NCBI GenBank assembly: GCA_036269155.1
Contig: DATASP010000152.1
Span: 1-37,008, forward strand
Direction: 5' to 3'
Origin: Candidatus Udaeobacter sp.
Lineage (GTDB): Bacteria; Verrucomicrobiota; Verrucomicrobiia; Chthoniobacterales; UBA10450
DNA: 37,008 nt
Made by a program: the position numbers and the translations under genes. This document shows positions 9,313 through 36,270 of this stretch, piece by piece. The notes below the pieces were generated by a model. The model saw only the letters and a list, made by a program, of their open reading frames with translations, made no database searches and was not told the DNA's origin. Each line of letters opens with the position of its first letter. Within the stretch, counting starts at the first letter, position 1.

Positions 9313-9342
9313 GACCGATCTTAGTTTAGATGCCTGTTTCCG

Positions 9343-10544: not shown

Positions 10545-10642
10545 AGCAAACTGTAGGTCTCGAACAGGAAGATTTTCGATAACTTTTCGCGCTTTTTTTA
10601 CAAAAATCCGACAGAGTTGGAATAGAACCTGACAACGCCTCG

Positions 10643-11678: not shown

Positions 11679-12488
11679 GTGACCCGCAGGCGACAGGCAG
11701 TCTGGGCATTTTTGTGTCGCAAACGTGATCCAGTGAAGCCATCTGAATACGAAATCATGTTTCGCGTCGAGCAGACGCACTGGTGGTATCGCGCGCTGCA
11801 CCGCCTAATCTTTGATACCCTGGAAAGAGAACTGCCTGATTGGCCTGAGAAGGCAATCCTCGATGCCGGCTGCGGCACGGGTGCGATTCTGAAGCAGCTC
11901 GGGAATGAGGAAAGAAATGTCGGTGTCGATTTGGCGTCGGAAGCCATCTCGTTTTGCAACGAACGCGGTCTAAACAACGTGCGACAAGCCAACATTTGTG
12001 CGCTGCCATTCGCAAACGCCTCATTCGATGCCGTGATTTGCTCGAGCGTCCTTTACCACCAGTGGGTGAAGGACATCGCGGGCGCAGTTTGCGAGTTCTA
12101 TCGCATCCTGCGTCCGGGTGGGTTGTTGCTCGTGAACGTCCCGGCTTATGGGTTTCTGCACAGCGCCCATGACGACGCGGTGATGACCGCGCGACGGTTC
12201 AGGATAAGCGAGATTCGCGCGCTCCTGCTGGAGAATAGCTTCGCGATACGGCGATTAACCTACTGGACTACGTTGCTCTTTCCGTTCGCCGTTTTGGCCC
12301 GAACTCTAGGCTGGTCAAAAACTGGACGCGATTTCTCCAGGACGGGAGAACCACCTGGTTTCGCCGATTACTTCTTCCCGAGAATCATGGCACTTGAACG
12401 CACCTTGTTGAAAAAGCTCTCTCTTCCATTTGGCGTGGCCCTGCTGGCGGCTGCCACAAAACGAGTGGTTAGTCGTCGCCAGGATTAG
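11679..12488 (+). CDS. Class I SAM-dependent methyltransferase
   Basis: Motif I ILDAGCGTGAILKQLG and post-I VGVDLASEAISF. N-terminal YE.M...EQTHWWY block and LRPGGLLLVNVP. The start is uncertain: GTG at 11679, TTG at 11712 or GTG at 11733. Confidence 0.85.
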   Translation: MTRRRQAVWAFLCRKRDPVKPSEYEIMFRVEQTHWWYRALHRLIFDTLERELPDWPEKAILDAGCGTGAILKQLGNEERNVGVDLASEAISFCNERGLNNVRQANICALPFANASFDAVICSSVLYHQWVKDIAGAVCEFYRILRPGGLLLVNVPAYGFLHSAHDDAVMTARRFRISEIRALLLENSFAIRRLTYWTTLLFPFAVLARTLGWSKTGRDFSRTGEPPGFADYFFPRIMALERTLLKKLSLPFGVALLAAATKRVVSRRQD

Positions 12489-12515
12489 TGAAGGATTATT
12501 CTTCTTTTGTTCAAG

Positions 12516-16800: not shown

Positions 16801-16915
16801 TTAAACGATGGTTGTCGCCTGCACCTAATTAAAAGACCCTCTCTCAAGTGCAAAGAACCGACGCAATGCAATCGCGTAGTTGCAACCTGCTATTTTTCAC
16901 ATCAATAGCCCTTCC

Positions 16916-20511: not shown

Positions 20512-22576
20512 GAGCAAGCGCCAGTTTGGCGAGCATCACAGCGGCTTACCAAGATGCGTTCGCAGTCGTCGCATAACGATTGTTATATACCTGTTTCTTA
20601 TCGCAATCAGCGTGGCCGTATTCGGCCAAACAGTCCGTTACGATTTCGTTAATTTCGACGACGACTTATACGTCTATAAGGCACCTGCGATTCAGGCCGG
20701 ATTGAGTGTAAAAGGGCTGGCGCTTGCCTTTACCAGCCCACACGCGCGCAACTGGCATCCACTGACGACCATTTCGCACATGCTGGATTGCCAGCTATAC
20801 GGTTTAAAGGCTGGGGGCCATCATGCAACCAACGTGGTGTTGCATACCATTGCAGTGCTGTTGCTCTTCCGGGTGCTGTGGCAAATGACCGGCGCAGTGT
20901 GGAAGAGTGCCACTGTCGCGGCGCTATTCGCGGTTCACCCACTCCATGTTGAATCAGTGGCATGGGTGAGCGAACGAAAAGACGTTCTAAGCGCCGTCTT
21001 TTTTTTACTCATGCTGGGGGCATACTTTCGTTACACACGCGCACGGTCTGTAACGCGTTATCTGGCGGTTGCTGTGTTATTCGTGGCCGGGCTCATGTCC
21101 AAGCCAATGCTGGTAAGCGCCCCCGTTATCCTTCTTCTTTTGGATTACTGGCCACTACGTCGCTTTGAACAACTTTCGTTAACAAAAGAGAGAGGTAAAA
21201 CCGCAAAATCCGGTGATCAATGGCGCGTAAGACGAGACCTTTTCTTAGAAAAAGTTCCCTTGCTCGCTATCGCCGCGGCTTCGTGTGTCATCACATTTAT
21301 GCTGCAGAAACGGGCTACTGGTGCGATCCCGCCGCTGCCGCTCCTCTGGCGCATGGAAAACGCGGTCGTGACTTACGTGATTTATGTCTGGAAAACATTG
21401 TGGCCGACACGCCTCGCCGTTTTTTATCCTCATCCAAACGATACCCCGACAATTTGGGAAATTCTTCTCGCGATCGGACTGCTTCTCGCAATGACTATCG
21501 CAGCAATCGTTTTCCGAAGGAAACGACCGTATCTCTTCACCGGATGGTTCTGGTATGTCGGTATGCTCGTCCCCGTAGTTGGTATCGTTCAGGTTGGAGA
21601 ACAAGGCCATGCCGACCGCTATACCTACCTTCCTCACATCGGTCTGTTTTTGCTCGCAGTGTGGCTCGTCGCTGATGTGACTGCAGTGTCCCAACGACGC
21701 TCACGGGTTGCTGTGGCATCCGCGGTAATAATCATCGTTGGCCTGGCGTGGGCTTCATTCATTCAGACTTCGTACTGGCGCAACAGCGAGACTCTTTGGA
21801 CCCATGCTCTTGCCGTGACTTCTAATAACGATGTTGCCCACAATAATCTCGGGTACCTCTGCGCCGAACGTGGAGAACTGGACAAGGCGATCTCTCACTT
21901 TGAGGCCGCGTTAAGGATTAGGTCCAAGAAGCGGGATCCGCATTACAGCGTCGGTTCAGCTTTTGTGCAAGTAAACCTCGCCGACGCTCTGGGCCGAAAA
22001 GGACAGCCAGATGAAGCCATGGTTCACTATGGGGAGGCGATAAAATTGCTACCGAATTATGCGGATGCCTATTACGACCGCGGGAACATTCTTTTTGCAG
22101 AAGACCGTGTCGATGAAGCAATGGCAGATTGGGAGAAGACTCTCCAGATACGACCTGATGACGCGGATGCCCATACCTGCCTTGGTAACGCTCTCTTGCG
22201 GCGAGGTTCGGTTAAGGAGGCGGTCGCCCACTACGAAAACGCAATAGCCTTGGCTCCTGAAGATCCCCATTCTCGCATCAACGTTGCCTGGGTGTTGGCA
22301 ACTGCTGCCGATGCGTCCATCCGTGATGGCATCAAAGCGGTTGAGTTCGCTCAGCAGGCAATGGAGCTTTCAGGGGGCAAAGATCCTAACTTCCTCCGGG
22401 CGCTCGCAGCTGCTTATGCCGAGACTGGCCGGTTCCCTGAGGCGATCACGACCGCTAAACAAGCAATACTTATAGCTACCATGCAAGGCAACTCCCGGTT
22501 CGCGAAAGTTCTTGAGGAGGACGTTGGGCTTTACCGCGACCATGTTCCGCTTCGCGCATCAAAGTCCGCCGATTAG
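20483..22576 (+). CDS. TMTC-like GT-C/TPR protein (paralogue P3, type B)
   Basis: Motifs: VFGQTVRYDFVNFDDDLYVY, NWHPLTTISHMLDCQLYGLKAGGHHATN, HPLHVESVAWVSERKDVLSAVFFLLMLGAY. TPRs and the shared C-terminal module follow. The ATG at 20483 overlaps the P2 end by 29 nt; an alternative GTG at 20504 would overlap by 8 nt. Confidence 0.85.
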   Translation: MAARRPIVNKSKRQFGEHHSGLPRCVRSRRITIVIYLFLIAISVAVFGQTVRYDFVNFDDDLYVYKAPAIQAGLSVKGLALAFTSPHARNWHPLTTISHMLDCQLYGLKAGGHHATNVVLHTIAVLLLFRVLWQMTGAVWKSATVAALFAVHPLHVESVAWVSERKDVLSAVFFLLMLGAYFRYTRARSVTRYLAVAVLFVAGLMSKPMLVSAPVILLLLDYWPLRRFEQLSLTKERGKTAKSGDQWRVRRDLFLEKVPLLAIAAASCVITFMLQKRATGAIPPLPLLWRMENAVVTYVIYVWKTLWPTRLAVFYPHPNDTPTIWEILLAIGLLLAMTIAAIVFRRKRPYLFTGWFWYVGMLVPVVGIVQVGEQGHADRYTYLPHIGLFLLAVWLVADVTAVSQRRSRVAVASAVIIIVGLAWASFIQTSYWRNSETLWTHALAVTSNNDVAHNNLGYLCAERGELDKAISHFEAALRIRSKKRDPHYSVGSAFVQVNLADALGRKGQPDEAMVHYGEAIKLLPNYADAYYDRGNILFAEDRVDEAMADWEKTLQIRPDDADAHTCLGNALLRRGSVKEAVAHYENAIALAPEDPHSRINVAWVLATAADASIRDGIKAVEFAQQAMELSGGKDPNFLRALAAAYAETGRFPEAITTAKQAILIATMQGNSRFAKVLEEDVGLYRDHVPLRASKSAD

Positions 22577-22643: not shown

Positions 22644-24923
22644 CTATCTAGCTTGCTTGTGATAAGGCTGCCCCGATTCATAGAGCGCGATCTCTCTTCG
22701 AAGGAAATCGCTTAATGCGGCGTTTCCCTGGTCATCGGCGGCTTGCAAGGCTTCATGGGCTGTCGCTTTAGCTTCCGAAAAGCGGCCAGCTTCCGCATAA
22801 GCAGCAGCCAGAATCCGCAGAGCAAGTGGCCTCTTCCCATCCGATGAGCGACTGGCCTGCTCAGCCAGGAGAACCGCTTCCGGACCGTTTCTAAGCGACG
22901 GATCCGGCGACGTCGCTAGCAGCCACGCGAGGTTACTTTGCGCGGCAACATTTTCCGGTGCGAGGGTAAGCGCCTCTTTGTATTGCCCAATCGCTTCGGC
23001 AATGCGGCCTTTCGCCAGAAGGGCGCTGCCCAAGTTTGCATGCGCGTCCGCGTTCCCCGGAAGCAACTCCAACGCTTTTTCGTAGTGTATAATAGCTTCG
23101 TCGATCCGCCCTTTGCGAAGGAGTGCGCTCGCCAGATTGTATTGCGCTTCAGCCTGATCTGGCGCTTGAGCCAGGCACATCGAATAACGGGCGATCGCGT
23201 CGTCTAGGTCGCCCGGCAGTTGCCGGACGATAAGCGCATTTGCCAAGTTGCACGCTGCGGCCGCGTAACCCGGCCAGATCGCCAACGCCTTCTGATAGTG
23301 AACAATCGCATCGTCCACGCGACCCATGCCAAAGAGCGTGACGCCAAGGTTGTTGTGCGTCTCGGGATCGGCGGGACTTATCTTCAACGCCTTTTCATAA
23401 TGCTCGATCGCATCATCAAGCTGGCCTTTCTCAACCAGACACCGGGCGAGATTGTAATGCGCTTCGGCGTAATTCGGCCGCAACGCGAAGGCCTGTCGAT
23501 AATGCTCCAACGCCTGATCGACGTCGCCCTGCTCACGCAGAATGATCCCCAGATTGTAATGCGCCATCCAGCAGCCGGGATTTTTTTGCAGTGTTGCTGT
23601 GTACAGCGTAACAAGATCATGGTAAACGGCAGTCTGGCGCCAAGTCAAAAAAACGAGCGATAGCAGAAATATCCCCGGGATTGCCGGAAGCAGAAGCGAT
23701 TTTGATCTAACCACGGCGATGTTACCGGGAAATTGTAGAGCGGCTGTGTCAGCTCGCGAAGGCTTTCGGAGTTCACCGAAACGCCCTACAGCAGTTACAA
23801 TCGCAGCACCAGCGAGTGCGAGAGGTCCCATGCTTGCCAGATATTGAAAGTGATCGCTCACAAAGGAGTAGCGGAAGAAAAAGACGTCGAAAAAGCCGAG
23901 CACCGGAAATAGCGAGACGACATAGTAAGCGGCGGCAAAGAACAGAGCACGGCCCGATTTTGCACGGATAAACCACAACGCAACCAGCCCGGCTATTGCT
24001 GCCAGCAACGGGAGATACGCAACGACTTTCGACGAATCAACGTCCCACCGTGGATATATGAAGATCAGAGGATGCGGCCACGCCAGTTTGCCGAGGTAGA
24101 ACCAAATGGCTTTACCCGCGATGATAAGGCGTTCGGGCCGGGTCTGCGCCCAATCACCTCCAATCGCACCCGCGTGAAATTTCTGTTCGAAAACCGTCCA
24201 GATGCTGGCAACTGCCGATATCAACGCAAATGGAACAAGCGCCAAAAAATCACGCCTTTGGATTCGTTCTCTTCGCCACCAGATACAAAGTGCGAGCACA
24301 ATAGGCAACATGACCGTGGACGGCTTGCTCAGAATCGCGAGCAGAAAGAAAAGCAGAGATAAAGCGATAACCAAGGAGCGGCGGTCCGTAGTCTCCCGCT
24401 GGGACGGTCGAGAAACGGCGCCGCCTTGATCCTCCCATTTCAAAAAGAAAAGGATCGAGAGCAGATAAAATACACCGGACTGCGTGTTTTTCAGTTCAGT
24501 CACCCATGCGACTGATTGCACCATGACTGGGTGTATAGCCCACAGGGCAGCTCCAAGCCACGCGCCGCGAACGTTAAGTTGCCGCAAGACCCGCCAGAGC
24601 AAAATCGCCGAAACGGCGTGCATCAACACGTTGAGGATGTGATACGGCAGCGGATTTAAGCCGACGAACTTGTGCAACGCCCAAAACGTCGTCAGGACGA
24701 GCGGATAATAGACAGCTTGCGTCGTAGTCCAGATTTCCTTCAGGCCGAGCGGGCCGACGACGCAAGGATTCTGCGTCAGATGCGATTCATCGTCCCAAAT
24801 GAAGCCGGCCCGAAATACCTGGGCGTACGCAATAAAAACGAGAGGAATGAGAAGCAGCGCCCACAACCACTCGCGTCTCCAACGGGAGACACCAATTTCA
24901 CGAACTGGCACAAATTGATTCAA
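22644..24923 (-). CDS. TMTC-like GT-C/TPR protein (paralogue P4, type A)
   Basis: Motifs: FRAGFIWDDESHLTQN, HPVMVQSVAWVTELKNTQSGVFYLLSILFF. About 7 TPRs plus the shared C-terminal module. TTG start at 24923, preceded by AAGGTGA. It lies 47 nt downstream of the His-rich TPR gene on the same strand. Confidence 0.85.
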   Translation of the reverse strand: MNQFVPVREIGVSRWRREWLWALLLIPLVFIAYAQVFRAGFIWDDESHLTQNPCVVGPLGLKEIWTTTQAVYYPLVLTTFWALHKFVGLNPLPYHILNVLMHAVSAILLWRVLRQLNVRGAWLGAALWAIHPVMVQSVAWVTELKNTQSGVFYLLSILFFLKWEDQGGAVSRPSQRETTDRRSLVIALSLLFFLLAILSKPSTVMLPIVLALCIWWRRERIQRRDFLALVPFALISAVASIWTVFEQKFHAGAIGGDWAQTRPERLIIAGKAIWFYLGKLAWPHPLIFIYPRWDVDSSKVVAYLPLLAAIAGLVALWFIRAKSGRALFFAAAYYVVSLFPVLGFFDVFFFRYSFVSDHFQYLASMGPLALAGAAIVTAVGRFGELRKPSRADTAALQFPGNIAVVRSKSLLLPAIPGIFLLSLVFLTWRQTAVYHDLVTLYTATLQKNPGCWMAHYNLGIILREQGDVDQALEHYRQAFALRPNYAEAHYNLARCLVEKGQLDDAIEHYEKALKISPADPETHNNLGVTLFGMGRVDDAIVHYQKALAIWPGYAAAACNLANALIVRQLPGDLDDAIARYSMCLAQAPDQAEAQYNLASALLRKGRIDEAIIHYEKALELLPGNADAHANLGSALLAKGRIAEAIGQYKEALTLAPENVAAQSNLAWLLATSPDPSLRNGPEAVLLAEQASRSSDGKRPLALRILAAAYAEAGRFSEAKATAHEALQAADDQGNAALSDFLRREIALYESGQPYHKQAR

Positions 24924-24970
24924 CAGTCAGCTTCACCTTATCGAATTCGTGTCAATTCGCGCAATTCGCG

Positions 24971-26902
24971 TCACGGAGACTGAGCGTTACTCTCTTTGGC
25001 AACGCGCAGGTTTTCCTCGGCCTCTGGAAAATCAGGATGGAGGCGTAGCGCTTCTTCGAATTGTGCAATCGCTTGGGAAACGTTGCCCTCGCGCATGAGG
25101 ACCCGTCCAAGATAATTATGCGGTTGAGCAAGTTTCGGGTTGAGATTGGATGCCTTCTGAAAATGTTCCTTTGCTTCGGATAGATCTCCGTTATCAAAAA
25201 TCAAACTTCCGAGGTCGATATGAGCATCGACCAAACGGGGATCGAGTTGCAGAGACTGGCGGTAATGCGCAATTGCTTCCTCGATTTTGCCATGTTTTTC
25301 CAGGAACGCGCCATAGCTGTAGTGAGCTTGGGCGGACTTGGGGGCGAGTCGGATGGAAGCTTCGGATTCGGCAGCCGCTTGATCGTCGTGACCGAGTTGC
25401 TCCAGAAGATAAGCATAGCCTGAGTGATACTCGGCATTGTTGGGCTCAATGCGCAACGCTTGTTCAAAATGCGTTTGCGCGTCGTCCAATTTTCCTTGCT
25501 CCATTAGGAGGCCTGCCAGATTAACGTGGCCTTTCGCTGAGCCGGGATTCAAACGGAGCGCTTCGGAAAAATGTCCGGCTGCCTCATCGGTTCGTCCAGC
25601 CTCTTGCAAAGCCGTCGCGTAATTGAAATGCGCTCGCACACTGGACGGAAGATCAGCAACGATCGCGGATAGACGCTCAAGTTTACCCTGGGCAGAACGC
25701 ACCTCAGTGAACCAAAGAGCTACAAGAGGTATTACAAAAACCGCTACCCATTTCGCGCCGTGCAAAGCCCAACTCGGCAAAAAGGCGTTTTTTGAAGGAT
25801 CAGTGGCTCCGCCGGTGATGCCGAGAGATTGTCGCGTCGACTTCTCACGAACCTTCCAAATGAAGCCGTCGTAGTAAAAATGGAGCAATGCCGACGCGGT
25901 CACCACGCCGGTTAAAATGCGCTTAACGGCATCGATGCCGACATATGATTTGGACAGGCTCAGCCCACCGTAGGCGAGCACCAAGCCTACATAAACGCCT
26001 ACGAGCGCGCCACTGCGGCGGAACACGAAACGCATAAACCCACCGATCGATCTGTCGCTCTCGACTCGTTTACGGTTATAGATCCACACCAGCGAGAGGT
26101 ACTGCACATCGTGGAACACTTCGAATAACGCGATGCCGACGAGGACGCTGGCTACGATGTTGTTGCAGTACCACCAAAAGGAAATGCTCGTGACAAGAAG
26201 CACCAGCTTGACCGGGCTCGGGCGCTTTCCTTGCGTCCACATCCAGACGAAATTCACCAGGAATACACCTGAAATGGCCAAAGCCAACGCCAGCAGCCCT
26301 TGCTGCGCTGCCCGAAGGAGTGCCGGCGGAATAAAAGGTCCTCCGGCCGCATAATAACTTTCCAAGGTATCGGTCATCCGCTGCGGCGAAAGAAGCACAG
26401 CGGTCGCAAACCAGATGCCGCACACGGCGAAATCAAGGCGTCGCGTTAGCTCCGCGAAGGAGCCAACCTTCGCGTCGTAGATGCGGCAGAACCCGTATGT
26501 TTGCATCATTCCATGCCAAACGCCCCAGACAAACGCGACAAGCACGATGCCTTTGAGGTCCCACAGAGAAAAAGCTGCGCAAACCACTACGAGGAAAACC
26601 GGTGCGAAAATGAATCGGTATCGGAAACGCTGAAACAAGGCGCGGTCACCGTAGGCGCGAATCATACCTGGCAAGTGGTGCCCCATCGCACCGAACGCGG
26701 CGACAAAAAGATAAATGTCTTCGGCCGCCCAGAGTCCCTGGGCCCCGACAAAGATGGGCACCAGCAAGAGCGGCGTACAGACGTAGAGAATCAAGTCGCG
26801 CCAACTGTCCAGAATCCACACATTAGGCTTGCGTCCAGCGGCTGCCGGACCAGGCACAGCCGGGACAGTTTGCGGAGATGAGAATGCAGAAACGTGCTGC
26901 AT
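24971..26902 (-). CDS. Uncharacterised His-rich 11-TM membrane domain fused to about 7 C-terminal TPRs
   Basis: 643 aa. The membrane domain (aa about 30-400) carries GHHLPGMIRAYGD (H75, H76), WGVWHGMMQTYG (H130), LFEVFHDVQY (E261, H264, D265) and LLHFYYDGFIWK (H341, D345). It lacks the loop-1 DD/DE and DUF1736 blocks of the neighbouring paralogues. TPRs run from about aa 420 to the end, and the shared C-terminal module is absent. Confidence 0.8.
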   Translation of the reverse strand: MQHVSAFSSPQTVPAVPGPAAAGRKPNVWILDSWRDLILYVCTPLLLVPIFVGAQGLWAAEDIYLFVAAFGAMGHHLPGMIRAYGDRALFQRFRYRFIFAPVFLVVVCAAFSLWDLKGIVLVAFVWGVWHGMMQTYGFCRIYDAKVGSFAELTRRLDFAVCGIWFATAVLLSPQRMTDTLESYYAAGGPFIPPALLRAAQQGLLALALAISGVFLVNFVWMWTQGKRPSPVKLVLLVTSISFWWYCNNIVASVLVGIALFEVFHDVQYLSLVWIYNRKRVESDRSIGGFMRFVFRRSGALVGVYVGLVLAYGGLSLSKSYVGIDAVKRILTGVVTASALLHFYYDGFIWKVREKSTRQSLGITGGATDPSKNAFLPSWALHGAKWVAVFVIPLVALWFTEVRSAQGKLERLSAIVADLPSSVRAHFNYATALQEAGRTDEAAGHFSEALRLNPGSAKGHVNLAGLLMEQGKLDDAQTHFEQALRIEPNNAEYHSGYAYLLEQLGHDDQAAAESEASIRLAPKSAQAHYSYGAFLEKHGKIEEAIAHYRQSLQLDPRLVDAHIDLGSLIFDNGDLSEAKEHFQKASNLNPKLAQPHNYLGRVLMREGNVSQAIAQFEEALRLHPDFPEAEENLRVAKESNAQSP

Positions 26903-27220: not shown

Positions 27221-29434
27221 ATGGCAAAACACGTTTCTGTGCGGTCAGTCATCCCGAAGCTTGGGGTGATTTCCGGGATTTGTGCTGTCCTCGCCGCGAT
27301 TACCTGGTTGGTTTTTGGTCAAACCCTAGCGCACCAGTTCGTCACCTACGACGACCCACAGTATGTTTACGAGAATGCAAAGGTTGCCGCAGGACTCTCG
27401 CCAGAGAGCGTGCTTTGGGCCTTTACGCACACTGTAGGTGGTAACTGGCATCCGCTCACGGTCATTTCGCACATGTTGGATTGTCAGCTGTACGGTTTGA
27501 AGCCGGCCGGACACCATTTCACAAACCTTCTTTTGCATACCATCGCTGTCATCCTCCTGTTTCTCGTGCTGCGACGAATGACAGGCACTTTGTGGCAAAG
27601 CGCTTTTGTTGCGGCGTTATTCGCAATTCATCCGTTGCACGTGGAGTCGGTCGCATGGATCTCTGAGCGGAAAGACCTATTAAGCGCCGTCTTTTTCATG
27701 CTCACGCTCGGTGCTTACATCCGATATGTTCACAAGCCCTCGTTGACATCCTACATCCTTGTCCTGCTCGTGTTCGCGTTCGGCCTGATGTCGAAACCGA
27801 TGCTGGTGACCGTTCCGTTCGTTCTCCTATTGCTGGATTACTGGCCCTTAAAGCGATTCGCGCCAGAAGCTCCAGTCAAGCGTGGCCAGCAGCGTATAGT
27901 TGAAGATCGCGAGAGTATTCGACGAATTCTCCTCGAAAAAATTCCACTGCTACTTTTTTCATTTGGCTCTTGCGCGGCAACTCTTCTTGCTCAGCGCCAT
28001 TTTATCGACCCGATCGGCCATCTGTCACTGATAAACCGATTTTCTAATGCCGCTGTATCAACAGTCATTTATCTGCGACAACTCGTGTGGCCATTTGGAT
28101 TGTCCGTCTTTTACCCTCATCCGAGGCACAGCCTCTCTCTCGTACAAGTTTCGGTGGCGGCGCTGTTCCTCATCGCGGTCAGCGCAGCTGCTTTCATGTG
28201 CAGACGGAGACATCCTTATTTTTTTACGGGTTGGTTTTGGTTTTTGGGAATGCTCGTGCCGGTGAGCGGCATCATACAGGTCGGCGAGCAGGCTCACGCG
28301 GATCGCTACATGTACCTGCCTCAGATCGGTCTGTATATTCTTGTGACGTGGTTCGTTGCCGACACTGTCTCCTCGTGGCGCCATCGACGCATTCTTCTCG
28401 CCACGGCAATGGCCTCCTCGATCGCCCTCTTGGTGTACCCCGCATGGAAGCAAACCAGCTACTGGCGTGATGGCCGCGCACTTTGGACGCACGCCCTCGC
28501 GGTCGATCCACAGAACGACACGGCTCACATTAGTATTTGCGATCTTGACCTGCGCGAAAACCGCCTGGACGACGCAATTCTTCATGCACGCAAAGCATTG
28601 GAGATCCGACCCGACAGCGCCGATGCTGAGAGTCGTCTCGGTGTTGCGCTTTCAGCAAGTGGGCAAAACGAAGAGGCGAGCATCCACTTCAGAAGGGCTC
28701 TCGAGACGCATCAGATTCGTCCCCGGCTCCACTACAACCTCGCCTCATTACTTCTGAATAGTGGACATCTCGATGAGGCAATCGCTGAATTTCAGAAAGA
28801 ATTGCAAATCCAGCCGGAGTTCGTGGAAGCGCACAATAACCTCGGCATTGCGCTTAGATCAAAAGGAGAACTCGATGAGGCACTTGCTCATTTCCAGAAG
28901 GCTTTGGAGCTGGATCCGCACCTACCCAAGGTTCATCACAACATCGCCATGATCCTGTTGCGGCAGGGTCAGCTCGATCAGGCAGTCGCTCATTTACAGA
29001 AGGAGCTGCAAGTGAGTCCCGCCAGCGCGGAGGCACACAACGACCTCGGTATCGTGTGGTCGCAACAGGGCCGAATCGATCGGGCAATCAACGAATGGCA
29101 AAAGACGCTGGAGCTACAGCCAGGCAATCTAAACGCCTACTGCAATCTCGTGTGGGTGTTCGCTACATTTCCTGACGACGTGATTCGAAGCGGGGCAAAA
29201 GCAGTTGCTCTGGGCGAGCGTGCGCTGCAGCTCTCCGGCGAGAAAGATCCTCGGGTCTACCGGCTGCTTGCTGCTGCGTATGCGGAGAATCATCAATTCG
29301 ACAAGGCAATTGAGACAGCGCAGCGTGGCTCGGAGTTGGCCACGAAGCAGGGAAATTACGCGGCGGCAAACGCGCTCGAATCGAATATCGATCTTTACCG
29401 AAAGAGCCTCCCGCTGCGCGACTCGAGCGAGTAA
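27221..29434 (+). CDS. TMTC-like GT-C/TPR protein (paralogue P5, type B)
   Basis: ATG preceded by AGGAA. Motifs: VFGQTLAHQFVTYDDPQYVYEN, NWHPLTVISHMLDCQLYGLKPAGHHFTN, HPLHVESVAWISERKDLLSAVFFMLTLGAY. About 7 TPRs and the shared C-terminal module follow. Confidence 0.88.
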   Translation: MAKHVSVRSVIPKLGVISGICAVLAAITWLVFGQTLAHQFVTYDDPQYVYENAKVAAGLSPESVLWAFTHTVGGNWHPLTVISHMLDCQLYGLKPAGHHFTNLLLHTIAVILLFLVLRRMTGTLWQSAFVAALFAIHPLHVESVAWISERKDLLSAVFFMLTLGAYIRYVHKPSLTSYILVLLVFAFGLMSKPMLVTVPFVLLLLDYWPLKRFAPEAPVKRGQQRIVEDRESIRRILLEKIPLLLFSFGSCAATLLAQRHFIDPIGHLSLINRFSNAAVSTVIYLRQLVWPFGLSVFYPHPRHSLSLVQVSVAALFLIAVSAAAFMCRRRHPYFFTGWFWFLGMLVPVSGIIQVGEQAHADRYMYLPQIGLYILVTWFVADTVSSWRHRRILLATAMASSIALLVYPAWKQTSYWRDGRALWTHALAVDPQNDTAHISICDLDLRENRLDDAILHARKALEIRPDSADAESRLGVALSASGQNEEASIHFRRALETHQIRPRLHYNLASLLLNSGHLDEAIAEFQKELQIQPEFVEAHNNLGIALRSKGELDEALAHFQKALELDPHLPKVHHNIAMILLRQGQLDQAVAHLQKELQVSPASAEAHNDLGIVWSQQGRIDRAINEWQKTLELQPGNLNAYCNLVWVFATFPDDVIRSGAKAVALGERALQLSGEKDPRVYRLLAAAYAENHQFDKAIETAQRGSELATKQGNYAAANALESNIDLYRKSLPLRDSSE

Positions 29435-29678: not shown

Positions 29679-32600
29679 TTAGAATCGCTTCTTCAGCCCG
29701 ACGTACCAGAACCGGCCTTTGATGGTAGCAATCGACTCGTCGTACCCGTTCTCAAACGAGCCAGCTACAAACGGTGGATCTTCGTCGGTCACGTTCTGCA
29801 GACCAAGCGTGACCGTGGTATTGTTGAGCCACCATCTCCAGTTGTTGCAGCCGTACTCGGCCGTCGATACTGGGATGACATTCTTCTCCTTGCCATCCTT
29901 GCCGCTCTTCACGTTTTTACCGCCGTCCTTGGCATAACCGGGCACCTCGGCTGCAGGCGGTGGCGGCAGGTTGAACGTGTAGTTTAAGATGAGATCCAGC
30001 GTAGTCCACATGGCCACTTTTCGCGCACGGTCAGGAAAGGCACCGCTTCTGGGCTCTTGTGGCTTCGACGCTGCTGTAAGGTCGAAATTGTCGTCCTCAA
30101 ATTGGCCTATCCAGTGGACTACCGCACCAACATCCAAACCACCCGCCCACGTGTCAGCCGGGCCATCGTAGAAGATACTGAAGTTGGCCCGATCCCATGG
30201 CAGCGAACTGGTCAGGGTGAATGACGTAGGGATGAACTGGCCCCCGATACCAAACCGTTTTGAATCTGGGGTAGGTTGAAGCTCAGCTCGGAACAGGTGG
30301 GTTCCGTTGATCGTGGTGGTTACCCTGCCCCAATCGCTGCCGCCAAAGATCGTAGAATCCAGAATATAGATAGCTTCGTAGTCCAGACCTTCGAAGATCG
30401 CGCCGGCGACGTTGAAGCTAGGATCCTGGACCAGAGTGACTGGACCGAATACGCCGCCAGGCGGCGGGGCATCACGAGTTACCAAGGCGTCAAAAGGCGC
30501 ACGATTACTGTTCTGGATTATGAACTGCGCACCGAGGACTGTCACGAGGTCGCGCATGTCAATGTGCCAATAGTCCGCGCTTAGTGTCAGGCCCTTGACC
30601 CATTTCGGGCTCCAAACCGCTCCATAGGTCCATTCATAGGCAACTTCCGGATGCAGATTGGGATTTCCGGCAATGCGTTCCTCGATCTGCGGCTGAGTCC
30701 GGAATTGCACCGGATTAGTGACCGTAAACGGATCTACCACGAGCGGGAAGTTCTGACTGCCCGCGGGCGTAAGCTCCGACAGGGTGGGCGCATGAAACGC
30801 TTCCGTATAGCTGCCACGCAGCGTTACCGCGCCGATATACTTGGGATCAAGCGGCTGCCAGCGGACAGACACCTTCGGTTTCTGCGCGTTATACCTGCTG
30901 TGCACCGCCGGCTGAAACGGCACCAGAACCGTAGATGTATTATTGCTGTACCATTCTTCCCGCTCAGCAAAATCAACCTCAAAACTGTAGAACCCGGGGA
31001 AGTTCCACGTGGGGCTGGTGAAAGGCACCCGCACTTCCTCGTAGACTGCCCAGATGTCCCGATTCACACGGTAGCTTTGTCCGTCCACCGAGCCAATCGA
31101 TTGAAACGTATTGTTCAACGGGTCACGATCGCGAGTGAACCTCGGCGCGTCATACTCGCCGCCAATCGCGAAAGAGATTGGCCCGGCGGGAAGACTGAAC
31201 AGGTCGCCGTTAATGGTCGCATAGTAAATTGGCAGCTCATATTCGCCGGTATTTTGCAGGTTGACATAAACCCCTGCTCTGGCCGCCCTGCTGTTGTGAC
31301 CATTAATGCCAAAAAAGGGATCAAACGCTGTGGCCAGATCGGTCGACAGTAGCGCATCGCGCAACCCGGGCTGGCTGACCTCTCCTATGGATATGTCTTT
31401 TCCTTCGTTCCGTGAGTAGCGGAAGCCCGTTTCCCAGTTCCAAGTCTTGAAGTAATCGGCAATTTCTCCCATCTCACCGCGGAGCCCAACATCGAACAGG
31501 TAATCATTGTATGTGAACTGTTCATGTCTGGGCCCGGTGTCGTTAATCCCACGAAACTTAACCCCGGTAGTCACAGGGACACCGACTCCGTTAATATCCA
31601 GAATCCTGTCCGCGACTGTGAAGGGATTAAAGGGGTTCGCGATAGGCACACTGATGCCTTGGGGGCTGAATCCGACGTTGCTACCTGGAACCTTGAACGG
31701 ATCAGGCGTAAACGGCACAGCCGCCAACGATGCATCGAAATACGAGCGCGCTACCTTGAAATCGGCAAATATTGTCAGGTACTTGTCGCATATGTCGCGC
31801 GTAAACGAGCCGTAGTACACTTGACGGTCCCCTGGCGGCAGCGCCGGCGTGAAAGCCGCGAAGTTAAAAAGGACATAATTCCCATCCAGCACTTGCGGCG
31901 ACCCAAAGCCAACGTTTGTGTGGTTAAACACAACAGTTTGGAAGCCATTGTTATTGATTGGCCCCGGGACGAGTCCATTATAAAATGGAGAAGTCTGACG
32001 GTTTGGCGCCGAGTGTGCAGGCGGAGTATTCACGCCGAACTGCGGAAGACCCGGTGGCGCGAAAAACAGGCTCGGAATCAAGCGCGTACCTGCGGTGGTA
32101 ATTGCGCCAGGAAAATTGCTGCTGCGCGGATTATTTCCCCCAAACCGGGTGAAATCCCCATTGGAAGCAATATCGCGGTCACGACTGAAAACGCCACCGA
32201 GGCGCTCCCAGAAATCGGCAATGACCACGATATCCGTCTTGTCATCGCCGGTGCCCGCTTTAATCCATGACTCCCACTCGCCCATCTCATTGGAGGCGCC
32301 CAAGTTTGTGTTCCCGTAGGTCGCTCCAATCTCCAGGCCGCGGAATTTGTGGATCAAAAAGAAATTGACCACGCCAGCGATCGCGTCGGAGCCGTACACA
32401 GCCGAGGCGCCATCCTTGAGAATATCAACGTGATCGACCATGGAGAAGGGGATCAGGTTAATGTCCGGACCTCCGCTAGTGCCAGCGCCGGCCAACGAGC
32501 CATAAGCCACCCGTTTGCCATCGATGAGAACCAAAGTCTCCTTGGGCAACAGACCGCGCAGGTTAAACTGGACGGTGCCGTCACCGGCATTGCCGATGTT

Positions 32601-32930
32601 CAGGTTAACAGTCCCGCCCGCCTCCTGCGGGATGAATTCCTGCAGATCGGTTGCACTGCGAATGCCCAGTTTCTCGATGTCCTGCGGACGGTACGTGTCC
32701 ACTGGGTTCGGGCCGGTCTCTTCCGCTGTGGGAATGTTCGAACCCGTTACGACGACGCGTTCGACCTCAGCCGCCGATGCAGGTGCAGGCGCACCGGGCG
32801 GAGGCGGAGCTGGCTCGGCGGGAGCCGGCAACTGCGCGAAGGCGTTGGATGCGATGATGAACGGAAATCCGACGCCCGCCATGAGAGCGAGCCGAACGAA
32901 TCTAAACGTTTTTAGTGCGTTTTTAGTCAT
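29679..32930 (-). CDS. TonB-dependent outer-membrane receptor
   Basis: Signal peptide (LALMAGVGFPFIIASNAFAQ), then a Pro/Ala-rich linker. TonB-box/plug region ERVVVTGSNIPTAEE ... LRGLLPKETLVLIDGKRV. A long beta-barrel ends in the terminal aromatic residue (RFWYVGLKKRF*). I prefer the ATG at 32930 (GGAGA 5 nt upstream) to 32942. Confidence 0.9.
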   Translation of the reverse strand: MTKNALKTFRFVRLALMAGVGFPFIIASNAFAQLPAPAEPAPPPPGAPAPASAAEVERVVVTGSNIPTAEETGPNPVDTYRPQDIEKLGIRSATDLQEFIPQEAGGTVNLNIGNAGDGTVQFNLRGLLPKETLVLIDGKRVAYGSLAGAGTSGGPDINLIPFSMVDHVDILKDGASAVYGSDAIAGVVNFFLIHKFRGLEIGATYGNTNLGASNEMGEWESWIKAGTGDDKTDIVVIADFWERLGGVFSRDRDIASNGDFTRFGGNNPRSSNFPGAITTAGTRLIPSLFFAPPGLPQFGVNTPPAHSAPNRQTSPFYNGLVPGPINNNGFQTVVFNHTNVGFGSPQVLDGNYVLFNFAAFTPALPPGDRQVYYGSFTRDICDKYLTIFADFKVARSYFDASLAAVPFTPDPFKVPGSNVGFSPQGISVPIANPFNPFTVADRILDINGVGVPVTTGVKFRGINDTGPRHEQFTYNDYLFDVGLRGEMGEIADYFKTWNWETGFRYSRNEGKDISIGEVSQPGLRDALLSTDLATAFDPFFGINGHNSRAARAGVYVNLQNTGEYELPIYYATINGDLFSLPAGPISFAIGGEYDAPRFTRDRDPLNNTFQSIGSVDGQSYRVNRDIWAVYEEVRVPFTSPTWNFPGFYSFEVDFAEREEWYSNNTSTVLVPFQPAVHSRYNAQKPKVSVRWQPLDPKYIGAVTLRGSYTEAFHAPTLSELTPAGSQNFPLVVDPFTVTNPVQFRTQPQIEERIAGNPNLHPEVAYEWTYGAVWSPKWVKGLTLSADYWHIDMRDLVTVLGAQFIIQNSNRAPFDALVTRDAPPPGGVFGPVTLVQDPSFNVAGAIFEGLDYEAIYILDSTIFGGSDWGRVTTTINGTHLFRAELQPTPDSKRFGIGGQFIPTSFTLTSSLPWDRANFSIFYDGPADTWAGGLDVGAVVHWIGQFEDDNFDLTAASKPQEPRSGAFPDRARKVAMWTTLDLILNYTFNLPPPPAAEVPGYAKDGGKNVKSGKDGKEKNVIPVSTAEYGCNNWRWWLNNTTVTLGLQNVTDEDPPFVAGSFENGYDESIATIKGRFWYVGLKKRF

Positions 32931-32987
32931 TAGTTTCTCCATTGGTTTGGTTAGGTTTCGGCAGGGTTATTAAATTTCTAAAGGTCT

Positions 32988-33377: not shown

Positions 33378-36218
33378 CTAAGGCGGAGGATGAAATCCGA
33401 AGTCGTTCTCCAATTTTCCCCACAGCCAATCAACGAACCAATCTTTCTTGATTGAGTTGGCGTTGGTGCCGGCAAGCGCTTCCGCTTTGTCCACGCTGCC
33501 GTTCAAGCAGTACAGGTATGTAAGCAAGAACGTGTCGTTCGGACTCAATGCGCCGCGATCTCTCTCCCCCTCGAGTAGGCGAATTGCTGCGTTGACGTCC
33601 CGCCGCGCCAGCGCTCCCGCAATTAAATCCGCCATTATTTCCAGCGGTGGCGCTTGCGATCTCTTCGCGACTCGCTCGGCAATGGCCAGCCGGAATCCGT
33701 CACTCTTGAGCACCTCCAACACCGGTATTCGCAAGCCAGAATGACGCAGATAAAGATCCAGTTCGGCCAGCTTGTTGCTTCCAACCGTCTCGGATAGATA
33801 GCGCGACTCGCGAATGACAAAGAATGATTCCATCGACGAGTTCAGCGTCTCTGGCCAAACCGCAGCGACCAACGGAGAATGAAGGAAACGTTGGAGCGCC
33901 GGAAGCGCCTCCATGTACGTGAAAGCAAAGCGCTGGCTTGCTTCGTCGTCCCACGCGGCATCGCTCAGCCGCTTCGGATAATTATCCGTAAGCGGCGAGA
34001 CGTCACGCGTGATCCGATCGATCTCTTGGCTGTCCATGAGAAAAAGAGCGCCCAATTGTTGCGGAACCTCGATACCGATTCTCCTCAAATCGCCGCCCGA
34101 ATCTGGGTGGCTCCATAATTGCCGGATTTCCTCCTCCGGCACCTTGCGTCCCGGCCCTTTGATGCCCATCATGATCCAGTCCTGATCGGCCCCGGCCCAA
34201 ACCGAAGAGTTTGAGAAAGCATCATGGAATGCACGAAGAATTGCTTTCGTTTCCTCGACTTTCAGCTGATTGATGGGCAGCCAAAAGGTGGCGATTCCGC
34301 CTTCCTTCAGCCGACTGTTCATGAGCGAGAAGAATTGGTGCGTATAGAGATTAACCGAGCCCGCTACTTTGGGCGGGGGCGGTTCTCCCGAAATGATGTC
34401 GTACTGTCGCGGGCTGGCCTGAAGAAAGAAGCGGCCGTCCTGCACGACAGCGTGTGTGCGTGGATCACGCAATGGATTGGAGTAATTGATGCCGGAATAA
34501 AAATCAGCGAGCGCGAACACCTCCTTGGAAATGTCCACCACATCCATCCGTTTAACGTGCGACCCATGGAGAAACGCATCCGCTGTGACGCCGCAGCCAT
34601 AAGAAATAAGCAACACGTCTTCTGATTCCTGACGAAAAGCCAACGGAAGATAAGCAAACAATCTCATGTAGCGCTGGCTGTACGGATTTGTGGCCGACAT
34701 CGAAAATGCGTTGGTCAGCAACCGGTAGTAATACGGTTCGCCGAAAAGATCGCGCCGCAGCAACTGCCACGTGTCCGAAGTGCCCTCGATCCTTTTCACT
34801 ACATGTTCAAGCACATGGCCGTGCTTATCCATTTCGTAAGGCCGACTCGCGTGCGCGAAGTGTGATTCAACGCGTTGGTAAGGAAAAAATGCGAGCAGCA
34901 GAACTACGGTTGCGCAAAGCGCGATTGTGACCAGACCGATTGGCCGCCGAATTGACCAATCTGCGCGGTCGGTCACGAGGATGCTAAGCAAAGCGTATCC
35001 CGCGGCGCAAAATATGAGGCTCCACTGATAGCCGATGGCCGGCAGCAGGACGATGCTTGCAGCAAGCGGGCCGACCGCGGCTCCCGCCGTATTGAATAAC
35101 GTCGCGATGCCAGTGCTCTTCATGCGGTCTTCCACTCTCGCCTGAACATTTGCCACGATGGATGGAAACAGGATTCCTGAGAGTAAACTGACGGGGAACA
35201 TCAGGGCGATGGATAATAGCGCGATCTGCCACCAGCGCAGCTCGAAGACGCCAGTCGGCGCAGGAAATAATTCACCCGGGAAAAACAGATACGACAGGAG
35301 GACCAAAATCGCCGTGCTCAACAGCAACGCCGGAAGCAAGTGATTCGGTTGAGCCTCGGAGCGATGAATCGCGCCACCCAGAATTGCTCCTGCACCAATG
35401 CCTGCCAGCACAACCGCGAGCATGACGGCAAACGCGGTCGGCGACGATGCGACATACAACCGCAGAAACCGGAACCAAATCACTTCCAGCGCAAGAAGAA
35501 TGCAGCCCGTCCCAAAGCTGACGAAAAGCAAACGCCACGGAGGCCGATACGTCACACTCAAGCGGAGCGGAAACGTTCGCTGCAAAACATTCGTGCCGCT
35601 CTCGCCTTCGCGTTTTGCCACGATCAGAGCGACTGCGGCGGCCATGCAAACCGCCAAGCCCGCGGCCAAGCTCGTGCCTCGAAGTCCAAATGCCGCTATT
35701 AGATAACCTTCGCCGAGCACAGCGCCCGCTACGGCGCCCAGTGTATTGAACCCATACAGAAAACCAATCGCGCGCGCAAAATTCGTTTGCCGCAACACTG
35801 GGTCCTCGATCAACACAGGAAGCGTCAACCCCATGGCCGTCGTCGGGACAAGCAGAATCAGGAAAGACACAATGAACCGCAGTCCGAGCAGGGTGGGCTG
35901 ATAATTCCACAGCGTTTGCCACACGGGCCGCATCAATTCGCCGAGCACCGGAAGGCCAAAGACGATTGTACAGCCAAACAGAGCGACGAACAGCTCCAGC
36001 AACGCGTAAAGATGAAGCGGACGCCATCGCCGAATTCTCGATGACGCCGCGATCGCGCTTCCTAGCGCCAGACCCCCCATGAAACTGGAGAGAATCAACG
36101 CTGCCGCCCAAACTGAATTGCCAAATGCCAGCCCGCTCAATCGCAACCACAGAGTTTCGAAAATCAGAGCGCCAATTCCTGACAGGAACAGGACACCACA
36201 AAGGACGGCGACGCGCAT
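33378..36218 (-). CDS. Fused polytopic membrane domain / spermidine-synthase-fold domain / C-terminal helical-repeat protein
   Basis: The N-terminus MRVAVLCGVLFLSGIGALIFETLWLRLSGLAFGNSVWA is followed by about 12 or more TMs, typical of fused MFS/spermidine synthase proteins. The Rossmann region VLLISYGCGVTADAF...VDVVDISKEV...VVQDGRFFL...YDIISGEPPPP aligns to the SpeE blocks. I prefer the ATG at 36218 to the GTG at 36254. Confidence 0.8.
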   Translation of the reverse strand: MRVAVLCGVLFLSGIGALIFETLWLRLSGLAFGNSVWAAALILSSFMGGLALGSAIAASSRIRRWRPLHLYALLELFVALFGCTIVFGLPVLGELMRPVWQTLWNYQPTLLGLRFIVSFLILLVPTTAMGLTLPVLIEDPVLRQTNFARAIGFLYGFNTLGAVAGAVLGEGYLIAAFGLRGTSLAAGLAVCMAAAVALIVAKREGESGTNVLQRTFPLRLSVTYRPPWRLLFVSFGTGCILLALEVIWFRFLRLYVASSPTAFAVMLAVVLAGIGAGAILGGAIHRSEAQPNHLLPALLLSTAILVLLSYLFFPGELFPAPTGVFELRWWQIALLSIALMFPVSLLSGILFPSIVANVQARVEDRMKSTGIATLFNTAGAAVGPLAASIVLLPAIGYQWSLIFCAAGYALLSILVTDRADWSIRRPIGLVTIALCATVVLLLAFFPYQRVESHFAHASRPYEMDKHGHVLEHVVKRIEGTSDTWQLLRRDLFGEPYYYRLLTNAFSMSATNPYSQRYMRLFAYLPLAFRQESEDVLLISYGCGVTADAFLHGSHVKRMDVVDISKEVFALADFYSGINYSNPLRDPRTHAVVQDGRFFLQASPRQYDIISGEPPPPKVAGSVNLYTHQFFSLMNSRLKEGGIATFWLPINQLKVEETKAILRAFHDAFSNSSVWAGADQDWIMMGIKGPGRKVPEEEIRQLWSHPDSGGDLRRIGIEVPQQLGALFLMDSQEIDRITRDVSPLTDNYPKRLSDAAWDDEASQRFAFTYMEALPALQRFLHSPLVAAVWPETLNSSMESFFVIRESRYLSETVGSNKLAELDLYLRHSGLRIPVLEVLKSDGFRLAIAERVAKRSQAPPLEIMADLIAGALARRDVNAAIRLLEGERDRGALSPNDTFLLTYLYCLNGSVDKAEALAGTNANSIKKDWFVDWLWGKLENDFGFHPPP

Positions 36219-36270
36219 TGGTTGGGGCGATCTGGTAGGTACCTTCGGACGCACGGTGGTGTTCGATCTA

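Follow-up and report, generated by a model that had tools for sequence, protein, structure and literature searches.

A conserved and unclassified eleven-helix membrane domain joined to a tetratricopeptide repeat array in Candidatus Udaeobacter

Introduction

The TMTC proteins, which belong with the PMT clan to the GT-C glycosyltransferases and are represented in humans by TMTC1-4, have 11 transmembrane helices (TMs) followed by tetratricopeptide repeats (TPRs) in the lumen, and they rely for catalysis on long lumenal loops, namely a first loop that carries a catalytic acidic DD, DE or DxD motif and a second long loop between TM7 and TM8 (PMC7801869). A gene of the same overall layout lies among TMTC-like genes in a 37,008-nucleotide stretch of DNA from Candidatus Udaeobacter sp. 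(contig DATASP010000152.1; the whole stretch is referred to here as the window). We find that this gene, hereafter the target, encodes an inner-membrane protein whose membrane domain bears no relation to GT-C enzymes and is an unclassified protein family, new in sequence relative to Pfam, NCBIfam and the Protein Data Bank (PDB). The target is probably the founding member of a new family, whether of membrane enzymes or of transporters. The gene and its two parts are as follows.

24971..26902, minus strand: target gene, complete, 643 aa from an ATG start, an 11-TM domain followed by a periplasmic TPR array (open reading frame list; more than 3700 homologous clusters)
25694..26821, minus strand: unclassified membrane domain, aa 28-403 (AlphaFold2 model; no Pfam, NCBIfam or PDB match and no fold match)
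24974..25678, minus strand: TPR array, aa ~409-643 (~235 aa), about seven repeats, predicted periplasmic (Pfam TPR_1, TPR_2 and TPR_11; PDB TPR matches; topology)

Several other membrane protein families invite a comparison of a looser kind. The MBOAT (DltB, HHAT, PORCN) and acyltransferase-3 (OafA/OafB) enzymes hold a catalytic His deep within a polytopic membrane domain, where a basic and aromatic cytoplasmic mouth binds a nucleotide-containing donor, and the acyltransferase-3-SGNH fusions OafA/OafB join ten TMs through a linker TM to a periplasmic domain. The CREST zinc hydrolases (alkaline ceramidase, AdipoR/PAQR) are N-in proteins of seven TMs with an S/D/HxxxH signature, whose buried His/Asp metal site lies in the cytoplasmic leaflet and whose substrates are membrane lipids. 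Among metal transporters with intramembrane sites, CDF proteins use HxxxD/DxxxD at site A and ZIP proteins HNxxD/HExxH.

Results

Searches with the full-length protein were swamped by TPR matches and were therefore redone with aa 1-403 only, against a 2025 copy of Pfam, NCBIfam of 2026 and PDB entries up to April 2026. With this query Pfam returned noise (best match Tmemb_14, E=0.33), NCBIfam returned no match, no PDB sequence scored better than E=0.7, and a 20-sequence profile of the membrane domain found no match in the PDB. Scanned singly, none of 20 family members reached any Pfam family at E<=0.04, and we found no description of the family in the literature. Annotation recognises the TPR tail alone, and members of the family are accordingly named 'tetratricopeptide repeat protein', 'PilF', 'TadD' or 'hypothetical' in public databases; membrane families without annotation are not rare. 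Three members (P0282, P0298 and P0396) are called 'PilF/branched-subunit amino acid transport protein' by JGI, which suggests a weak COG match to the membrane domain, a match that Pfam scans of other family members did not reproduce.

An AlphaFold2 model of the membrane domain, built with the family alignment, is of high confidence (pLDDT 92.7, pTM 0.90, 348 of 403 residues at or above 90) and consists of eleven long helices at aa 33-55, 60-73, 94-113, 118-145, 151-170, 193-223, 230-249, 253-282, 298-320, 324-349 and 377-402. Foldseek found no match to this model in the PDB (best E 0.18, best probability 0.54, TM-score<=0.21), the weak matches being unrelated GPCRs and transporters, and none in the viral BFVD set. 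As a control, the membrane domain of the TMTC-like neighbour gave a far poorer model (pLDDT 71), yet its top eight Foldseek matches were all of the GT-C fold (STT3A, Pmt4, Pmt1/Pmt2, ArnT and a GPI-transamidase subunit; probability 0.97-1.00, TM-score 0.34-0.48). That the poorer control model still finds GT-C folds makes the null result for the target meaningful, and the fold predicted for its membrane domain is new relative to the PDB. An initial annotation of the window, made from the sequence alone, could not assign the protein to a family; the searches of Pfam, NCBIfam, PDB sequences and PDB folds all came back empty as well. Neither sequence nor fold leads to a nameable family in these three resources, relative to which the domain is new both as a family and as a fold.

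The family is large. An exhaustive HMMER search of 1.84 billion cluster representatives, each standing for a cluster at 50% identity, recovered 1272 proteins at E<=1e-3, of which 398 remain at E<=1e-30, and more than 3700 clusters in the 90%-identity database are homologous to the target, which leaves little doubt that the open reading frame picked out in the initial annotation is a real gene. Family members are typically 550-820 aa long and essentially all have a TPR-like C-terminal tail. In the target this region matches Pfam TPR_2 at E=7e-39 (129 bits, 5-6 stretches, aa 424-631) as well as the TPR domain of OGT and designed consensus TPR proteins among PDB sequences; taken alone, the C-terminal domain belongs to the TPR class by its tandem 34-residue motifs. 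Together with the eleven modelled helices, these matches bear out the layout of membrane domain and TPR array that had been proposed.

Conservation was assessed in 83 sequences that are 35-81% identical to the query, and 25 positions are invariant among them: D36, H75, P78, R82, Y84, R96, P101, W126, W129, H130, Q134, R140, Y142 and D157 in the N-terminal part, and H264, Q267, Y268, W273, Y304, G312, H341, Y343, D345, F347 and W349 in the remainder. About 30 further positions are at least 90% conserved, including D86, D143, K145, K232, E261, D265, N276, S337 and R352. Most of the strongest positions fall in four motifs, listed here with the single invariant Asp of TM5 and the last helix.

26645..26683, minus strand: motif 1, GHHLPGMIRAYGD, aa 74-86, end of TM2 and cytoplasmic surface helix (conservation, 83-125 sequences)
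26468..26527, minus strand: motif 2, WGVWHGMMQTYGFCRIYDAK, aa 126-145, TM4, aligns with motif 1 as a duplicated hairpin (conservation, hhalign)
26432..26434, minus strand: D157, invariant Asp in the cytoplasmic third of TM5 (conservation; coupling 133-158 ties it to the Q134 region)
26075..26125, minus strand: motif 3, FEVFHDVQYLSLVWIYN, aa 260-276, TM8 (conservation)
25847..25894, minus strand: motif 4, SALLHFYYDGFIWKVR, aa 337-352, TM10 (conservation; coupling 131-342 joins TM4 and TM10 beside H130 and H341)
25697..25774, minus strand: TM11, aa 377-402, poorly conserved linker helix that takes the chain to the periplasm (model; conservation 0.44; positive-inside statistics)

The invariant residues are H75, P78, R82 and Y84 in motif 1 (with D86 at 97%; 83-125 sequences), W126, W129, H130, Q134, R140 and Y142 in motif 2, H264, Q267, Y268 and W273 in motif 3 (with E261 at 98% and D265 at 94%), and H341, Y343, D345, F347 and W349 in motif 4. 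The initial annotation had placed all four motifs and numbered H75, H76, H130, H264 and H341 correctly, giving motif 2 in the shorter form WGVWHGMMQTYG (aa 126-137), motif 3 as LFEVFHDVQY (aa 259-268) and motif 4 as LLHFYYDGFIWK (aa 339-350). The His and Asp residues H75, H130, H264, H341, D157 and D345 are invariant down to 35% identity, whereas E261 and D265, which its motifs highlight, are substituted in some members, and H76 is kept at 87%, Tyr being its substitute. Its description of the domain as His-rich does not hold, since there are only 7 His in 403 aa (1.7%), and it is the four invariant ones that matter; nor do these all sit at helix ends, as H130, H264 and H341 lie near mid-helix in the depth analysis. 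Its remark that the His residues do not fit the desaturase pattern was correct: there is no HxxxH or HxxHH, the sole His-His pair is H75-H76, four His are invariant and no Pfam family matches. A membrane fatty-acid desaturase or hydroxylase of the di-iron type is accordingly excluded, as it needs three His boxes with at least eight conserved His and the target has seven His in total. By helix, conservation is highest in TM4, TM8 and TM10 (0.63-0.71) and lowest in TM6 and TM11 (0.39-0.44). A test for conservation on a single face gave no significant result for TM4, TM8 and TM10, where residues on every side are conserved, and no claim of single-face conservation is made.

Across the family, the proposed cytoplasmic segments carry 19.3 Lys and Arg residues per protein as against 3.3 on the periplasmic segments, and from these positive-inside counts it follows that the N terminus is inside, that there are 11 TMs and that the TPR array is periplasmic. 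The target is thus an N-in protein with a ten-helix core and an eleventh helix leading out to the periplasmic TPR array. The periplasmic loops are very short (4, 4, 22, 3 and 3 aa), with only G187 strongly conserved in the 22-aa loop between TM5 and TM6, and the strongly conserved loops are all cytoplasmic (aa 74-93, 139-150, 274-297 and 350-376). Those helices that bear the invariant His residues, TM2, TM4, TM8 and TM10, all run from periplasm to cytoplasm, and each His precedes an interface motif (RAYGD, RIYDAK, WIYNRKR or FIWKVR) by 6-10 residues. The hairpins TM1-2 and TM3-4 align in hhalign at E=2.6e-4 (minimum over 30 column shuffles, 0.018), with P44 paired to P101, H75/76 to H130 and RAYGD to RIYDAK, a similarity that suggests an ancient duplication of the hairpin. 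Ten hairpin pairs were compared and the others were not significant (TM3-4 with TM7-8, E=0.08); no homology was found between the two halves of the membrane domain, which has no inverted-repeat or two-half symmetry.

How the invariant residues lie with respect to one another was approached through a mean-field direct-coupling analysis of 484 unique family sequences, which is noisy at its effective depth of 139. The top 60 inter-helix couplings have a mean depth difference of 0.232 under the alternating N-in topology, compared with 0.347 for random pairs (p<0.0005) and 0.299 when the helices are instead run in the same direction. Eight pairs among the strongest couplings flank conserved polar positions.

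131-342: flanks H130 and H341
133-158: flanks Q134 and D157
76-337: flanks H76 and S337
233-266: flanks K232 and H264/Q267
97-344: flanks R96 and D345
88-133: flanks D86 and Q134
158-270: flanks D157 and Y268
305-335: flanks Y304 and S337

Measured from the cytoplasmic end (0), the relative depth of the invariant polar residues is 0.06-0.64 and that of the four invariant His 0.06-0.50, that is, from the cytoplasmic half to mid-bilayer; together with the couplings that tie them, this argues that the His and Asp residues are not spread over both membrane faces. Matched depths and couplings beside the invariant residues point to one connected cluster. Judging from topology, hairpin homology and co-evolution, H75, H130, H264 and H341 would lie in a single buried group with D157, D345, Q134, Q267, S337, Y304 and K232. 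This cluster would extend from the bilayer centre to the cytoplasmic surface, where the Arg/Tyr/Asp motifs RAYGD, RIYDAK, WIYNRKR and FIWKVR are predicted by topology and co-evolution to form a ring around its mouth.

The nearest described proteins by layout, the TMTC-like enzymes, are also the nearest neighbours on the DNA, one of them lying directly downstream.

22644..24923, minus strand: TMTC-like GT-C gene with TPRs, 759 aa, downstream of the target (WDDE loop-1 motif, hhalign, JGI names, Foldseek)
24924..24970, minus strand: 47-nt spacer between the target and the TMTC-like gene (AAGGTG Shine-Dalgarno-like element, no terminator)

A protein that shares its 11 TMs and TPR tail with its neighbours and with the TMTCs (PMC7801869) and that sits in an island of GT-C genes could be taken for a GT-C glycosyltransferase diverged beyond recognition, as the sixth TMTC-like paralogue of the window. 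The comparisons do not bear this out. BLAST relates the five TMTC-like proteins of the window to one another and none of them to the target. In hhalign the target family scores a probability of 0.3% (E=0.22) against a TMTC-like profile, to which the PMT_2 protein of the window, used as a control, aligns at 88% (E=2.9e-6). GT-C models of Pfam and NCBIfam (PMT, PMT_2, DUF1736 and related) find no match in aa 1-403 at E<=10 or in 20 family members at E<=1, whereas the neighbour at 27221-29434 does match PMT_2. The five paralogues carry WDDE, WDDD, FDDD or YDDP in loop 1; no periplasmic loop of the target has an acidic motif and none is long, and its conserved residues lie on the wrong, cytoplasmic side. 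Foldseek recovers GT-C folds for the neighbour and none for the better-modelled target. The absence of GT-C motifs noted in the initial annotation is thereby confirmed, and a GT-C enzyme is rejected as an identity for the target, this reading being effectively refuted.

In calling the downstream gene a paralogue, the initial annotation was right as regards the other TMTC-like genes of the window and wrong as regards the membrane domain of the target. Homologues of this neighbour are named 'protein O-mannosyl-transferase' by JGI. An AAGGTG element sits 8 nt ahead of its TTG start. A public gene call (P0400) starts four codons further downstream, giving 755 aa and a gap of 59 nt; the Shine-Dalgarno-like element favours the TTG start, with 759 aa and the 47-nt gap on the same strand that had been reported. 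The spacer is 45-49 nt long in 12 of 14 orthologous loci and has no terminator, so that the proposed operon is plausible, and in the orthologue group of the window the two genes are probably co-transcribed, as far as gene spacing tells. Comparison of the spacers of the window, L007-L013, L027 and L028 shows an imperfect inverted repeat, CGAATTG...CAATTCG, with no U-tail, in most orthologues; the hairpin is predicted to be stable in some loci (z = -2.3 in L008) and is not significant in the window (z = +0.5).

The best genomic matches to the target are in soil metagenome-assembled genomes (MAGs) filed as Candidatus Udaeobacter, Chthoniobacterales or Verrucomicrobiota; L001 is 96% identical. One preprint describes Udaeobacter as genome-reduced (bioRxiv 10.1101/053942). 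GTDB species representatives encode at least 570 relatives, counted from 570 of the 599 matches listed, and several MAGs hold two or three copies, among them AV42 (L006, L034 and L077) and AV47 (L021 and L056). Sampled members come mostly from soil Chthoniobacterales, and a search with a divergent member (P0196) and a metagenome scan again gave soil Verrucomicrobia-type sequences. Four loci with 73-92% amino acid identity to the target are filed under MAGs of Limnocylindria, Terriglobales, Dormiibacterota and Acidobacteria (L002, L017, L029 and L049); these are probably mis-binned Udaeobacter contigs rather than cases of horizontal transfer.

Upstream of the target, two further genes complete a conserved string on one strand.

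33378..36254, minus strand: fused MFS/spermidine-synthase-like membrane protein, 958 aa, first gene of the string that continues with the receptor, the target and the TMTC-like gene (NCBIfam NF037959, 86.9 bits; synteny)
29679..32942, minus strand: TonB-dependent receptor, 1087 aa, upstream of the target (Pfam Plug and TonB_dep_Rec_b-barrel; synteny)

This order is kept only in true orthologues (81-88% identity), and in most orthologous loci the receptor lies directly upstream of the target on the same strand; the window differs by an extra TMTC-like gene of opposite strand between the two. Co-occurrence with TMTC-like genes holds only within the orthologue group, whereas other paralogue clades lie in unrelated contexts. 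Among distant homologues (54-59% identity) the receptor is adjacent in three of four loci (L081, L082 and L084), with the order TonB_C gene, receptor, target in L084; homology between the receptors of L082, L084 and the window extends from end to end. Across Chthoniobacterales a receptor lies within two genes in 13 of 61 loci and is absent from this distance in the other 48. The fused MFS/spermidine-synthase gene recurs in a second arrangement in L039 and L051, where the target is followed by the fusion, a DUF2142 gene and, further on, a receptor; we know of no characterised fusion of the NF037959 type.

In the largest sampled paralogue clade (66 loci; for example L069 8001-10790, and also L056, L066 and L073), the target is followed at a gap of -4 to +3 nt by a 282-aa arginase-family gene, to which it is, on the strength of this spacing, translationally coupled. 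The arginase-family protein has a weak match to PF00491 (23.8 bits) and conserves GSGDFH, SFDNHPDW and IDLDCL, its metal-ligand-like motifs being intact. The same clade has a PF04120 'low affinity iron permease' gene upstream, divergent from the target, and downstream, in convergent orientation, a FemAB-like/GNAT gene and two genes for small EamA proteins. Both clades place a polyamine-type enzyme fold beside the target, arginase-family in one and the spermidine-synthase-like fusion in the other, which may be a lead. Neighbours in other paralogue clades read as housekeeping genes, and gene context yields no single partner conserved across the clades. Rfam scans of the window, of five loci and of the intergenic region upstream detected neither a riboswitch nor any other element.

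The target gene lies within what appears to be a large glycosylation island that uses lipid-linked sugars (7246-29434). Besides five TMTC-like GT-C paralogues with TPRs (7246-9438, minus; 18592-20511, plus; 20483-22576, plus; 22644-24923, minus; 27221-29434, plus), it holds genes for YfhO (12507-14936), DUF2142 (15031-16551) and PMT_2 (16880-18559) proteins, an ArnC/PgfS-like GT2 (10643-11626), an NAD-dependent epimerase (9537-10709) and a methyltransferase (11679-12488). This makes eight GT-C-type enzymes to one polyprenyl-phosphate-sugar synthase. No obvious flippase is present among open reading frames of at least 150 aa, a survey that leaves aside smaller ones of the size of GtrA- or ArnE/F-like flippases. 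The two TMTC-like reading frames at 18592-20511 and 20483-22576 share 29 nt of the plus strand (20483-20511), either as translationally coupled tandem paralogues or through an over-extended start of the second.

Discussion

Although the target resembles the TMTC-like proteins in architecture, in its place within the same island, probably in one operon with one of them, and in having several paralogues with different TPR arms, it has no sequence, profile or fold relation to the TMTC/PMT enzymes. The two families also differ in where conservation falls, the conserved residues of the target lying in the cytoplasmic half of the membrane and those of GT-C enzymes on the periplasmic face. The likeness to MBOAT and acyltransferase-3 enzymes, which lies in the deep His residues, the cytoplasmic mouth and a linker TM to a periplasmic domain, serves as a working analogy only. 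In 20 members there is no Pfam match to MBOAT, MBOAT_2 or Acyl_transf_3 (PF03062, PF13813 and PF01757) at E<=1, and the PDB gave no fold match, although the presence of an acyltransferase-3 membrane-domain structure in the copy searched is unconfirmed. Compared with the acyltransferase-3-SGNH fusions, the target carries a TPR array in place of a catalytic SGNH domain and has no conserved funnel facing the periplasm.

Analogies to metal sites are of a similar kind. Like CDF and ZIP transporters, the target has (i, i+3/4) residue pairs at mid-membrane on core helices (H341xxxD345, E261xxH264 and H130xxxQ134) and adjoins genes of the metal-uptake type; it has no sequence or fold likeness to them, differs in the number and arrangement of helices, and possesses a TPR fusion and many more invariant residues, including the cytoplasmic Arg/Tyr ring. 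The CREST hydrolases are again an analogy only, with seven TMs and no TPRs. Structures of AdipoR and ACER3 are in the PDB, and no entry for either is among the Foldseek matches listed for the target. The haem-handling CcmF/CcsBA systems of cytochrome c maturation, with their TPR partners CcmI/CcmH, combine a polytopic protein bearing four functionally essential His residues with a periplasmic TPR module, an arrangement to which the target, with its four invariant His, is comparable, and the TPR part of the target matches Pfam TPR_CcmH_CycH with 52 bits, a match that is not specific to it, since all TPR proteins of the window match this model. In contrast to CcmF/CcsBA, the target has no WWD domain and no periplasmic His, several paralogues per genome, as seen in the target family, would not be expected, and no CcsBA or CcmF entry is among the Foldseek PDB matches listed.

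As a best guess, to which we give a probability of roughly 0.35, the target would be an intramembrane enzyme that depends on a metal, with its site turned to the cytoplasm or inner leaflet and its periplasmic TPR domain serving as a docking arm. The invariant cluster, a putative binding site for a metal or another ligand, accessible from the cytoplasm or inner leaflet, could then form the active site. The basic and aromatic mouth would bind a phosphate-bearing cytoplasmic molecule, or a lipid or lipid-linked molecule of the inner leaflet, for processing at the His/Asp centre, while the TPR arm would dock the enzyme to partners in the envelope. Candidates for such partners in the orthologue group of the window are the TonB-dependent receptor beside the target and the TMTC-like machinery of protein glycosylation, and paralogues with different TPR arms may serve different partners.

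Invariant residues of this number and kind (His, Asp, Arg, Tyr and Trp) are typical of enzyme sites. The proposal of an enzyme is further favoured by the position of the target in an island of lipid-linked-sugar glycosylation, probably co-transcribed with a TMTC-like gene, and by the TPR tail found on essentially every member, as in the substrate-selecting TMTC and OGT proteins (for TMTC, PMC7801869). The arginase-fold partner shows no evident signal peptide in our reading and is therefore presumably cytoplasmic, and coupling to such a protein fits a functional cytoplasmic face of the target. Several points weigh on the other side. Metal binding is suggested by residue types alone, and the clustering rests on topology and the noisy co-evolution analysis (effective depth 139) rather than on model coordinates. 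The weak point of an enzyme model is that no conserved periplasm-facing pocket links the cytoplasm-facing site to molecules held by the TPR arm. Moreover, a ten-TM core that is fully embedded, has hardly any loops and repeats its hairpins would be typical of a transporter as well, a neighbouring TonB-dependent receptor belongs more typically to uptake loci, and gene context varies between paralogue clades.

These features lead to a secondary transporter or permease, in which the mid-membrane HxxxD of TM10, ExxH of TM8 and HxxxQ of TM4 would bind a transition metal or other cationic cargo delivered through the adjacent receptor, the TPR arm would dock the receptor or TonB or capture cargo, and the cytoplasmic R-x-Y-D repeats would act as a gating network in the manner of MFS motif A. 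Its best support is the receptor itself, upstream in most orthologous loci, beside three of the four distant homologues (once in the TonB_C string) and homologous over its full length between the window, L082 and L084; to this can be added the divergent 'iron permease' gene of the largest clade, the almost entirely membrane-embedded core with its duplicated hairpin and paired metal-ligand residues, and the dependence on uptake that is reportedly a feature of the genome-reduced Udaeobacter. We nevertheless consider a transporter, the main rival of the enzyme, rather unlikely on the whole. The target resembles no transporter family of Pfam or the PDB (for MFS, LeuT, NRAMP, CDF, ZIP, DMT/EamA and other superfamilies the best Foldseek TM-score is 0.11-0.17 and the probability <=0.2, with no Pfam match), and neither inverted repeats nor two-half symmetry were detected. 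Conservation ends at the bilayer centre, leaving the periplasmic side without conserved positions, and a permease would rarely have as many as some 25 invariant residues. The usual ligands of TPR domains are proteins, not small cargo; we know of no inner-membrane permease fused to TPRs, and in 48 of the 61 Chthoniobacterales loci no receptor lies within two genes.

The same receptor and 'iron permease' genes, and four invariant His placed one per helix on four TMs, could also be read as signs of a membrane redox protein, with the His residues ligating one or two b-type haems or non-haem iron and electrons passing across or into the membrane, for instance in a periplasmic ferric-chelate reductase partnered with the receptor; FoxB-type inner-membrane reductases encoded beside siderophore receptors provide a precedent. 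Since the four His occur at depths of 0.06-0.50 and not as two pairs at two depths, no PDB fold likeness to haem-binding membrane proteins was found, the invariant Asp, Gln and Arg residues are left unexplained, and several paralogues in a small genome would be odd for a reductase, this seems very improbable. Improbable, too, is a non-catalytic scaffold or sensor, whose membrane domain would anchor the TPR arm and relay periplasmic binding to a cytoplasmic partner such as the arginase-fold protein. A TPR tail throughout the family, a conserved cytoplasmic surface that could be a protein-protein interface and the tight translational coupling to a presumably cytoplasmic protein in one clade would all suit such a role, whereas invariant ionisable residues buried at mid-bilayer (H130, H264, H341 and D157) are hard to explain in an anchor, and other clades have a different cytoplasmic partner or none.

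The interest of the target rests on its striking conservation, its confident model and an ecologically dominant organism: one report describes Candidatus Udaeobacter as among the most dominant soil bacterial groups on Earth (PMC7343977). That a genome-reduced host keeps several ~640-aa paralogues with 25 invariant residues implies an important function, one that is invisible to annotation. To our knowledge, Candidatus Udaeobacter is still uncultured. Absent from Pfam and NCBIfam and with no relative in the PDB, the domain lends itself cleanly to definition as a new domain family and to structural and biochemical study, and the model comes with obvious targets for mutation in H75, H130, H264, H341, D157 and D345. 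It is possible, if doubtful, that the target represents a new superfamily and a new membrane fold in which a four-His metal centre with access from the cytoplasm or inner leaflet carries out undescribed chemistry or transport and is wired through its TPRs to TonB-dependent receptors and glycosylation enzymes, an unseen kind of trans-envelope module. As an enzyme, the target would be a new class of intramembrane catalyst; as a permease coupled to TonB-dependent receptors, it would give that uptake route a new inner-membrane partner; and as a trans-envelope module, it would be one that has expanded to several paralogues in a highly abundant soil bacterium.

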